Shown: positions 43,707-45,289 of the stretch, piece after piece
Numbering within the stretch: the first letter of the stretch is position 1
How the letters are laid out: the number at the start of each line of letters is the position of its first letter
IMG/VR virus record: IMGVR_UViG_2744054912_000003
Location: 1-45,289 of that record
Strand: one strand, 5' to 3'
DNA from: a virus
Lineage: Duplodnaviria; Heunggongvirae; Uroviricota; Caudoviricetes
DNA: 45,289 nucleotides
Notes under the pieces: model-generated
Databases searched by the model: none
What the model was told of the DNA's origin: nothing
What the model saw: only the letters and a program-made list of their open reading frames with translations
Translations under genes and position numbers: made by a program

Positions 43707-43744
43707 GGGGAGCCCGCAGAATTCGGAAAAAATCGTACGCTAAG
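43707..43744. repeat. 38-bp Tn3-family terminal inverted repeat (Tn1721-type as I recall it)
   Basis: GGGG...CTAAG architecture; the transposase stop lies inside the repeat, as is usual. Confidence 0.8.
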
Positions 43745-45162
43745 GTTTTCCGGGCATCCGTAAGGGCCGAAACTTCCCGTCTTCCAGTCTGCGGCTCTGC
43801 CGCCAGACGTAATCGCCGGTTAGGTTGATGTGCTCCCAGCCCAGCGGCGACAGGAATTGCAGCAGCTCGCCGTCCACCGGCTTGCCGGCCTCGACCAACC
43901 CCTGGGTGGCGCGTTCCAGGTACACCGTGTTCCACAGCACGATAGCCGCCGTCACCAGGTTGAGGCCGCTGGCCCGGTAGCGCTGCTGCTCGAAGCTCCG
44001 ATCCCTGATTTCCCCAAGGCGGTTGAAGAACACCGCCCTGGCCAGCGAGTTGCGCGCCTCACCTTTGTTCAGGCCGGCATGCACGCGGCGGCGCAGTTCA
44101 ACACTTTGCAGCCAGTCCAGGATGAACAGCGTGCGCTCGATCCGGCCCAGCTCGCGCAGGGCCACGGCCAGTCCGTTCTGGCGCGGGTAGCTGCCGAGCT
44201 TGCGCAGCATCAGCGAGGCGGTGACGGTGCCCTGCTTGATCGAGCTGGCCAGGCGCAGGATGTCGTCCCAGTGGGCACGCACGTGCTTGATGTTCAGGGT
44301 GCCGCCGATCAGCGGGCGCAACGTCGGGTAGGCTTGCACGCCCTGCGGCACGTACAGCTTGGTTTCGCCGAGGTCGCGGATGCGCGGCGCGAAGCGGAAG
44401 CCTAGCAGGTGCATCAGGGCAAAGACGTGATCGGTGAAGCCGGCCGTGTCGGTGTAGTGCTCCTCGATCCGCAGGTCGGACTCGTGGTACAGCAGGCCGT
44501 CGAGCACATAGGTGGAATCGCGGACGCCGACATTCACCACGCGGGTGCTGAACGGCGCGTACTGGTCGGAGATATGGGTATAGAACAGCCGTCCCGGCTC
44601 GCTACCGTACTTCGGGTTGACGTGCCCGGTGCTCTCGCCCCGGCCACCCGCGCGGAAGCGCTGGCCATCGGAGGATGAGGTCGTGCCGTCGCCCCAGTGG
44701 GCGGCAAAGGCGTGGCGATACTGGTGGTTGACCAGCTCGGCCAAGGCCGCCGAATAGGTTTCGTCGCGGATGTGCCAGGCTTGCAGCCAGGACAGCTTGG
44801 CGTAGGTCAGGCCGGGGCTCGACTCGGCCATCTTGGTCAGCCCGAGGTTGATCGCATCACCGAGGATTGCGGACAGCAGCAACGTCCTGTCTTTGGCCTC
44901 GGCCCCGTCCTTCAAGTGGGTGAAGTGGCGGCTGAAGCCCGTCCAGTCGTCCACGTCCATCAGCAGTTCGGTGATCTTGATGCGCGGCAGTAACTGGCTG
45001 GTTTGGTCGATCAGCGCCTGCGCCCGATCCGGCACCGCCGCATCCAGCGGGGTGATTTTCAGCCCTGACTCGGTGAGGATGGCATCGGGCAGCTCGTTGT
45101 CCTTGGCCAGGCGGGTGACGGTGGCCAACTGCTCGTCCAGCAGCTGCAAACGCTCTTCCAGG
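43740..45162 (-). pseudogene. tnpA: Truncated Tn3-family transposase (C-terminal ~470 codons only)
   Basis: Translation ...[33 protein letters not shown]...[75 protein letters not shown] is typical of Tn21-subgroup TnpA; the reading frame is broken at 45162/45163 by IS26. Confidence 0.85.
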
Positions 45163-45289
45163 GGCACTGTTGCAAAGTTAGCGATGAGGCAGCCTTTTGT
45201 CTTATTCAAAGGCCTTACATTTCAAAAACTCTGCTTACCAGGCGCATTTCGCCCAGGGGATCACCATAATAAAATGCTGAGGCCTGGCC
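45163..45289 (-). mobile_element. IS26 end (partial; continues beyond the window)
   Basis: GGCACTGTTGCAAA 14-bp IS26 inverted repeat at 45163-45176, followed by sequence I recognise as the IS26 terminus proximal to the transposase 3' end. Confidence 0.9.
45215..45289 (-). CDS. tnp26: IS26 transposase, C-terminal codons only (partial)
   Basis: Minus strand translates ...[24 protein letters not shown]-stop. Confidence 0.85.

Follow-up and report, generated by a model that had tools for sequence, protein, structure and literature searches.

An IS26-cut Tn1721-type transposon end in the ref gene of a P1-like phage-plasmid, probably bordering a resistance region

The right-hand end of the sequence analyzed here (the window, meaning the whole 45,289-nt stretch) carries the remains of three elements joined end to end: the 3′ part of a phage gene, one end of a transposon, and the beginning of an insertion sequence. 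We interpret this structure as a P1-like phage-plasmid in which a Tn1721/Tn1722-type transposon inserted into ref and was in turn cut by IS26, with a resistance region probably lying beyond the window, and we assign this explanation as a whole a probability of about 0.88. The features at 43535 to 45289 rest on matches for which chance is excluded. They are as follows.

42705 to 43346, minus strand: mat homologue (P1 mat), adjoining the ref remnant
43535 to 43706, minus strand: 3′ remnant of P1 ref (recombination enhancement function, a RecA-dependent HNH nuclease), codons 131 to 186 plus the stop codon
43702 to 43706, unstranded: ATCTA, the target pentanucleotide and one copy of a 5-bp target-site duplication, recognized by comparison with intact ref
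43707 to 43744, plus strand: 38-bp terminal inverted repeat, the tnpA-proximal end of a Tn1721/Tn1722-type (Tn3-family) transposon, GGGGAGCCCGCAGAATTCGGAAAAAATCGTACGCTAAG
43740 to 45162, minus strand: tnpA 3′ fragment, residues 516 to 988 of 988 plus the stop codon and 1 nt of codon 515, assigned by profile and nucleotide identity
45163 to 45289, minus strand: right (tnp26-distal) end of IS26, with 127/127 identity to many annotated IS26 copies
43740 to 45209, minus strand: chimeric 489-aa open reading frame (ORF) with a TTG start in IS26, made up of 16 IS26-derived codons and 473 tnpA codons

The replicon can be assigned to the P1-like phage-plasmids (Punavirus) by the collinear, high identity of its structural and dar genes to those of P1 and P7. 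Between 20300 and 45289, 80 to 90% of the window matched P1, P7, and SJ46 at about 98% identity, and JL22 gave a similar result. Collinearity with P1, P7, and SJ46 extended up to window position 43706, where the P1 match ended exactly (P1 coordinate 2466). The whole window was also collinear with the plasmid pCRST032_1 (NZ_AP045803.1), in which portal, DarA, DarB, and tail genes are annotated, at 99 to 99.6% identity. Differences from this plasmid clustered in darB (36 to 41.3 kb) and none occurred across 41314 to 45162; the last 2.4 kb of backbone and the 1456-bp transposon end were identical to it. The G+C content rose from ~0.45 to ~0.66 at 43707 and dropped again at the IS26 boundary. The other end of the window consists of ~122 nt from the terminus of an IS421 copy beside hokD, and the last 127 nt of the window are IS26. 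Such breaks ~127 nt into multicopy insertion sequences at both ends suggest that the window is a short-read contig (k = 127).

The 172 nt of the ref remnant were identical at every position (172/172) to nt 390 to 561 of the 561-nt ref gene of the P1-like phage MH445380.1. The encoded peptide matched Pfam PF16786 (RecA_dep_nuc) with an E value of 4e-21 over profile positions 52 to 102 of 103, and a partial “Ref family recombination enhancement nuclease” is annotated at the equivalent place in NZ_AP045803.1. In place of an intact 186-codon ref ORF, the window thus holds a fragment that lacks the first 389 nt (about 130 codons) and the promoter, and a search with ref nt 1 to 394 gave no match anywhere in the window. 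ref is dispensable for P1, and from what is known of the family, the gene is presumably inactivated here. Intact ref reads GGTGCCATCTACAAAG across the insertion point and contains a single ATCTA there. In NZ_AP045803.1, the inserted region has ATCTA next to its terminal repeat on either side. Since one copy is present in intact ref and one at each end of the insertion in pCRST032_1, the comparison demonstrates transposition into ref with a 5-bp duplication. A sequence-only reading of the window had proposed that the insertion destroyed a backbone or cargo gene at 43535 to 43706; the identity to P1 ref bears this out and makes it a backbone gene of the phage-plasmid. The same reading had suggested searching the flanks for a 5-bp duplication, and the ATCTA pair was indeed found in the relative NZ_AP045803.1; the window itself contains one end and one ATCTA, and the duplication cannot be checked inside it because the other transposon end lies outside.

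The sequence at 43707 to 43744 agrees letter for letter with the Tn1721 repeat printed in PMC7864471 and includes an EcoRI site. It was identical to both tnpA-proximal repeats of the tet(A)-carrying Tn1721 structure in NZ_AP028854.1 and to the corresponding repeats in NZ_AP045803.1 and NZ_CP116153.1. It occurs as a single copy, and a search of the window that allowed up to 4 to 5 substitutions found no second Tn1721 repeat. Inward of it, positions 43743 to 45161 (minus strand) encode a stop-free stretch of 473 aa, whose stop codon (43740 to 43742) falls within the repeat. Against NCBIfam NF033527 (“Tn3 family transposase”), this fragment aligned to positions 498 to 954 of 954 with an E value of 1e-214 and a score of 715 bits (cutoff, 500). 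It carries the entire Pfam PF01526 catalytic domain (DDE_Tnp_Tn3) and is without the N-terminal half of the protein (residues 1 to 515); the full-length homologue in NZ_AP045803.1 has 988 aa (WP_001138014.1). Together, the repeat and the tnpA fragment (43707 to 45162) were identical at 1456/1456 nt to NZ_AP045803.1 and to the copy in NZ_AP028854.1 that stands beside tetR-tet(A)-pecM. The latter record has the classical Tn1721 arrangement, namely, outer repeat, a 1786-bp duplicated tnpA′, pecM, tetA, tetR, inner repeat, and tnpA. Identity as Tn1721 was judged through such plasmid copies with Tn1721 architecture and through the published repeat rather than through the reference X61367.

NCBI's PGAP names WP_001138014.1 a “Tn3-like element TnAs1 family transposase.” TnAs1 is an ISfinder entry for a Tn1722 variant with near-identical tnpA and tnpR (PMC5756416). 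We considered TnAs1 as a separate transposon and rejected it: it is a Tn1722 variant, and the sequence in the window is 100% identical to tet(A)-bearing Tn1721 copies. Tn1722/TnAs1, the minimal Tn1721 transposon, has the same tnpA and the same 38-bp repeat family, but of its ~5.65 kb the window keeps 1456 bp. What is present is one repeat and a tnpA gene minus codons 1 to 515, with IS26 next to it, which is a remnant and not a complete or functional member of the Tn1721/Tn1722 group. The N-terminal half of Tn3-family transposases binds the repeats. Having a single repeat, neither tnpR nor res, and a TnpA fragment that is without this repeat-binding half, the transposon end would be immobile, a fossil.

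IS26 begins at 45163 with its 14-bp repeat GGCACTGTTGCAAA (45163 to 45176), and the sequence from there reads GGCACTGTTGCAAAGTTAGCGATGAGG and onward. The IS26 repeat string is also printed in PMC7864471. The window ends 127 nt into the element, which is 820 bp long when complete. The last 24 codons of tnp26 plus the stop codon lie at 45215 to 45289 on the minus strand, with the stop codon at 45215 to 45217; in the records that share the junction, the IS26 coding sequence is likewise on the minus strand with its stop at the equivalent position. At this border, IS26 would be the sole potentially active element. The sequence-only reading had described a Tn1721-like transposon end truncated by IS26, consisting of a 38-bp Tn3-family inverted repeat and the C-terminal ~470 codons of its transposase, with an IS26 inverted repeat at 45163 and a chimeric ORF as the product of the fusion. 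All of these points held up: the repeat, tnpA, and IS26 identities establish the truncated end, the transposase fragment comprises 473 codons plus the stop, and the ORF at 43740 to 45209 (minus strand, 489 aa) exists.

The chimeric ORF is most likely a gene-calling artifact. The transposase frame simply runs 47 nt into IS26, up to the TTG codon at 45209, and an exact-protein lookup returned AP028854.1 alone, a record with the same junction in which the same ORF had been called. No record was returned for the two small ORFs that also span the junction. Expression of the chimeric ORF from a hybrid promoter formed with the IS26 end was considered and rejected, as a promoter scan found no sigma-70-like site on the minus strand at or near the junction. 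The ORF begins 5 nt downstream of the tnp26 stop codon, and read-through transcription is conceivable; we saw no hint of a function.

Two complete records contain the identical ref::repeat junction, and in both of them a multiresistance region begins at this point. The first is pCRST032_1, a P1-like phage-plasmid of Escherichia coli from human feces in Ecuador, with the junction at ref nt 390 and 100% identity to window positions 43000 to 45162. Its left side reads ...GGTGCC ATCTA, followed by the repeat, a full tnpA gene (2967 nt, 988 aa), and IS26; its right side consists of IS26, a truncated mcp, the other repeat, ATCTA CAAAG..., ref nt 1 to 394, cra, cre, and c1. Between the two junctions lies a 40.5-kb multiresistance region with eight IS26 copies, which carries sul2, strAB, blaTEM-1, aac(3)-IId, dfrA17-aadA5-qacEdelta1-sul1, chrA, and mph(A). 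In this plasmid, 23 bp separate tnpA from the IS26 copy upstream of it, whose orientation is opposite to that in the window; in the window, IS26 lies inside tnpA, at codon 515/516. In the second record, pDETEC37 (NZ_CP116153.1), which shares the left junction, tnpA breaks off after 806 bp, and strAB, oqxAB, and a class 1 integron come next. By this comparison, the window would represent a third outcome of the same insertion into ref, one in which IS26 cuts into tnpA after 1456 bp. Plasmids of this insertion lineage (ATCTA in ref) come from Ecuador and China and differ from each other in their resistance cargo. A 36-nt query spanning the ref::repeat junction had 0 matches in each of the viral, metagenome, and genome (species-representative) contig collections.

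The element that entered ref looks like the minimal Tn1722 form or a Tn1721 from which the tet module has been deleted, given that the closest relative has a full-length tnpA at the repeat and no annotated tet(A). For the same reason, tet(A) specifically is not favored as a gene just beyond the window, as judged from the arrangement in this sister plasmid. Alternatively, the repeat could be the outer right one of a complete Tn1721, with the fragment belonging to the duplicated tnpA′ of 1786 bp, in which case tet(A) would once have stood just inward and might still be there. The window on its own fits both interpretations, since the tnpA′ of NZ_AP028854.1 spans 1786 bp and is thus longer than the 1456 bp that were kept. 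However, in the relative a full-length tnpA (2967 nt) runs on from the repeat, and the annotation of its 40-kb region lists no tet(A). In addition, the window matches the full-length-type copy at 1456/1456 nt and differs by 1 nt from the tnpA′ of NZ_AP028854.1, a point of little weight. We therefore consider an outer Tn1721 repeat rather unlikely. In one comparison, tnpA′ seemed to end at 1456 bp as well; this coincidence was only apparent and was discarded, because the query ended there and the true length of tnpA′ is 1786 bp.

The tnpA::IS26 junction is known from other contexts. BLAST recovered it, identical and as a single piece, in KM396298-300 (IncHI2, Salmonella), AP028854.1 (IncI/FIB, Escherichia fergusonii), CP132689.1 (IncF, Klebsiella pneumoniae), and the E. 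coli plasmids CP184093.1 (which carries an IncFII repA), CP184020.1, and JBTLGX010000002.1. Resistance plasmids of the IncF, IncHI2, and IncI groups, from four genera, carry exactly this junction. It is the same to the nucleotide as that in the Tn1721 remnant “tetA-tetR-repeat-truncated tnpA-IS26” of p1324KP_NDM-1, pSEN110055, and p22C057LT2, whose 1456-bp transposon segment is 100% identical to the window. The two settings differ on the other side of the repeat: in those plasmids it is the internal Tn1721 repeat and is followed by tetR-tet(A) (in the IncHI2 plasmids, it is a blaCTX-M-15 segment that follows the repeat), whereas in the window it abuts the phage gene ref and there is no tet module on that side. 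A much commoner junction in E. coli, found in most of 56 full-coverage records, lies 130 bp further into tnpA. The view in the sequence-only reading that IS26-truncated Tn1721 is a common scaffold therefore agrees with our results, in that IS26 junctions within tnpA are recurrent and familiar in many plasmids.

IS26 typically builds and reshuffles resistance regions. In three of five contexts with the identical tnpA::IS26 junction, a resistance gene was found within 10 kb beyond IS26; in the other two, only backbone or nonresistance cargo was present within 9 to 12 kb past it. What follows IS26 in each of these contexts is given below.

pSEN110055: aac(3)-IId
p1324KP_NDM-1: blaCTX-M-15
pAZ184_2: inverted tet(A) module
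p22C057LT2: plain backbone
Klebsiella p1 (CP132689.1): second IS26 plus hut genes

From these contexts and from the two plasmids with the same insertion in ref, resistance genes would be expected, with good probability, in the region adjoining the window, and the comparison favors the suggestion of the sequence-only reading that this is the edge of a resistance region. The opposing possibility is that nothing but IS26 and phage-plasmid backbone lies there. Precedents for it are p22C057LT2, in which the same junction and IS26 are followed by plain IncI backbone for 12 kb, and the Klebsiella plasmid with its second IS26 and hut genes. Three observations speak against a backbone-only flank. Both records with the same ref insertion bear large resistance regions at this place; the 5′ part of ref, cra, cre, and lox are all absent from the 45-kb contig; and the break of the contig 127 nt into IS26 suggests that the isolate had more than one IS26 copy. 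On balance, we think it unlikely that the region is free of resistance genes.

The following sequence of events would account for the structure. It is a reconstruction and not an observation, because no searched record has both junctions: the pair was found in none of the 72,556 plasmids of PLSDB and none of 5,426 complete E. coli genomes. A Tn1721/Tn1722-type transposon first entered ref at ATCTA by replicative transposition and generated the 5-bp duplication, the step that comparison with pCRST032_1 demonstrates. This would have placed the tnpA-proximal repeat against the 3′ part of ref, with the other transposon end and the 5′ part of ref now outside the window. A resistance region would then have grown inside the inserted element, as in pCRST032_1. 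In a second step, an IS26 event would have replaced everything inward of tnpA codon 515, i.e., the 5′ half of tnpA, tnpR, res, and mcp, so that the right end of IS26 now directly follows the repeat and the 1418 bp of tnpA beyond it. The tnpA::IS26 junction itself was probably made once elsewhere and imported by homologous recombination through shared tnpA sequence and/or by an IS26-to-IS26 reaction.

IS26 has no strong target specificity. Given this weak preference and the presence of the identical junction in IncF, IncHI2, and IncI plasmids, we consider it likely that the junction formed once and reached the phage-plasmid by recombination, and a fresh local IS26 insertion less likely. In the latter case, IS26 would have moved into or next to the resident tnpA and deleted adjacent DNA by intramolecular replicative transposition, and the likeness to the IncF, IncHI2, and IncI junctions would reflect export from the P1-like plasmid or coincidence. 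Deletion of adjacent DNA by IS26 is a well-known cause of gene truncation, and in pCRST032_1 IS26 has acted on the same transposon copy at another position, just upstream of tnpA. Nevertheless, in all eight other records the junction adjoins the tet(A) module of a Tn1721 structure (or, in the IncHI2 plasmids, the blaCTX-M-15 segment) and not ref, so that it is far commoner outside P1-like plasmids, and two independent IS26 hits at one nucleotide are unlikely for an element with so little target preference. Formation in place thus appears improbable, and import of a preexisting junction is the explanation that we prefer. A simple insertion of IS26 in place would show an 8-bp duplication, CTTCCAGG, together with the remaining tnpA and an otherwise intact transposon. 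An assembly artifact, in which repeats from two replicons were falsely joined along the way from ref via the 1456-bp tnpA segment to IS26, is scarcely credible. Both window ends do lie ~127 nt inside multicopy insertion sequences, as they would in a contig built from short reads, and the tnpA sequence is commonly repeated, but each junction is separately confirmed in complete, independently assembled records, and a de Bruijn assembler would normally break at a repeat with two different flanks.

Tn1721-type insertions at ref/mat of P1-like phages have been described for SJ46 and P1-CTX in papers that also name ref as one of the resistance gene locations of P1-like elements (PMC5241659, PMC11117986). 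Salmonella phage SJ46 and P1-CTX (KU760857) resemble the window in being P1-like and in having acquired resistance through a Tn1721-type transposon at ref/mat with a 5-bp duplication. The insertion point in SJ46 is different, however, being equivalent to window position 43561, ~25 nt before the ref stop codon, with TATGA as the duplication; its transposon is complete, with blaCTX-M-27 in mcp and without truncation by IS26. In the records compared, Tn1721-type ends at or near ref were found at the following positions.

ref nt 156: NZ_CP044294.1
ref nt 269: NZ_CP104527.1
ref nt 318: NZ_CP116978.1
ref nt 390: the lineage of the window
About ref nt 536: SJ46 type
270 bp upstream of ref: MH445380.1

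The ref locus is evidently a recurrent landing place for Tn1721-type ends, as seen with a query design that favors ref-adjacent cases. Ref stimulates RecA-dependent recombination between short repeats, and one could speculate that disruption of ref is selected for and not merely tolerated, such that loss of Ref might stabilize IS26-rich regions on P1-like phage-plasmids. Such selection would explain the presence of Tn1721-type ends at five or more positions in a 561-bp gene. We regard the idea as very doubtful: the search design preferentially finds insertions adjacent to ref, MH445380.1 has an intact ref beside a ~30-kb resistance region, and the SJ46 insertion takes off only ~8 ref codons.

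The components of the structure and their combination are already known, and the border is an ordinary edge of an antibiotic resistance region. The pairing of the two junctions is absent from the collections searched, yet it is a trivial variant, and our understanding of Tn3-family transposons, IS26, and P1 is unchanged by it. Its value is epidemiological. The structure marks the contig as a P1-like phage-plasmid in which ref has very probably become the site of an IS26-bounded resistance region, and phage-plasmids can spread resistance genes not just vertically but also by infection.

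Tn1721-type right ends were found at no fewer than five distinct positions in or at ref, the 561-nt P1 gene interrupted in the window (nt 156, 269, 318, 390 and ~536), and one further such end lies 270 bp upstream of it. Because ends of this type occur at so many positions of the gene, ref is evidently a recurrent insertion locus for them. All of these ends have a single orientation, but the query was able to detect that orientation only. The right ends in other P1-like plasmids are located as follows, by comparison record.

L006, position 2330
L007, position 2280
L008, position 2375
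L009, position 2063
L004, positions 31215-31252

In the unrelated IncI/FIB plasmid NZ_AP028854.1 (L003 5220-5267), ATCTA precedes the outer Tn1721 repeat, as it does in ref. Either the agreement is fortuitous, given a ranking that puts longer matches first, or it hints at a preferred target.

In NZ_CP184093.1 (L014 9680-12437), two Tn1721 tnpA fragments of opposite orientations and unequal lengths flank IS26, and one of them has the tnpA::IS26 junction of the window. The arrangement looks like an IS26-mediated inversion within the IncF tet(A) region.

The window has the following further features.

1-127, end of an IS421 copy (IS4-like; first ~122 nt), adjoining hokD
28378-29490, plus strand, 370-aa ORF, porin OmpC by annotation of pCRST032_1
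36000-41313, darB mismatch cluster, with nearly all mismatches to pCRST032_1 in 17.5-44 kb lying within darB
41567-42607, plus strand, 346-aa ORF, DUF2971 protein by annotation of the collinear relative
45163-45289, IS26 end (last 127 nt)

The start codon of the IS421 transposase is the complement of 66-68. Each end of the window breaks off ~127 nt into a multicopy insertion sequence, IS421 on the left and IS26 on the right, and the window therefore probably represents one entire contig of a short-read assembly (k = 127).

Between 17.5 and 44 kb, the window differs from pCRST032_1, a collinear P1-like phage-plasmid of E. coli, at 117 positions, 99 of them in 36-41.3 kb. Since the mismatches cluster in darB, an antirestriction methylase gene, with near-identical DNA on either side, they suggest a recombination tract there. 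P1 and P7 carry a res-mod type III restriction system between mat and darB, whereas the window carries the DUF2971-type ORF and two small ORFs; its content there thus appears to be a variable-region replacement. By its annotation, the 370-aa ORF is cargo of the phage-plasmid, an outer-membrane porin gene of host-like type. Finally, 16199-17542, inside a large 1,368-aa ORF (14458-18564), had no match in pCRST032_1, and 9134-9688, in a small-gene region, had only 88% identity to it; both are probably variable segments of the tail-fiber or host-range type.
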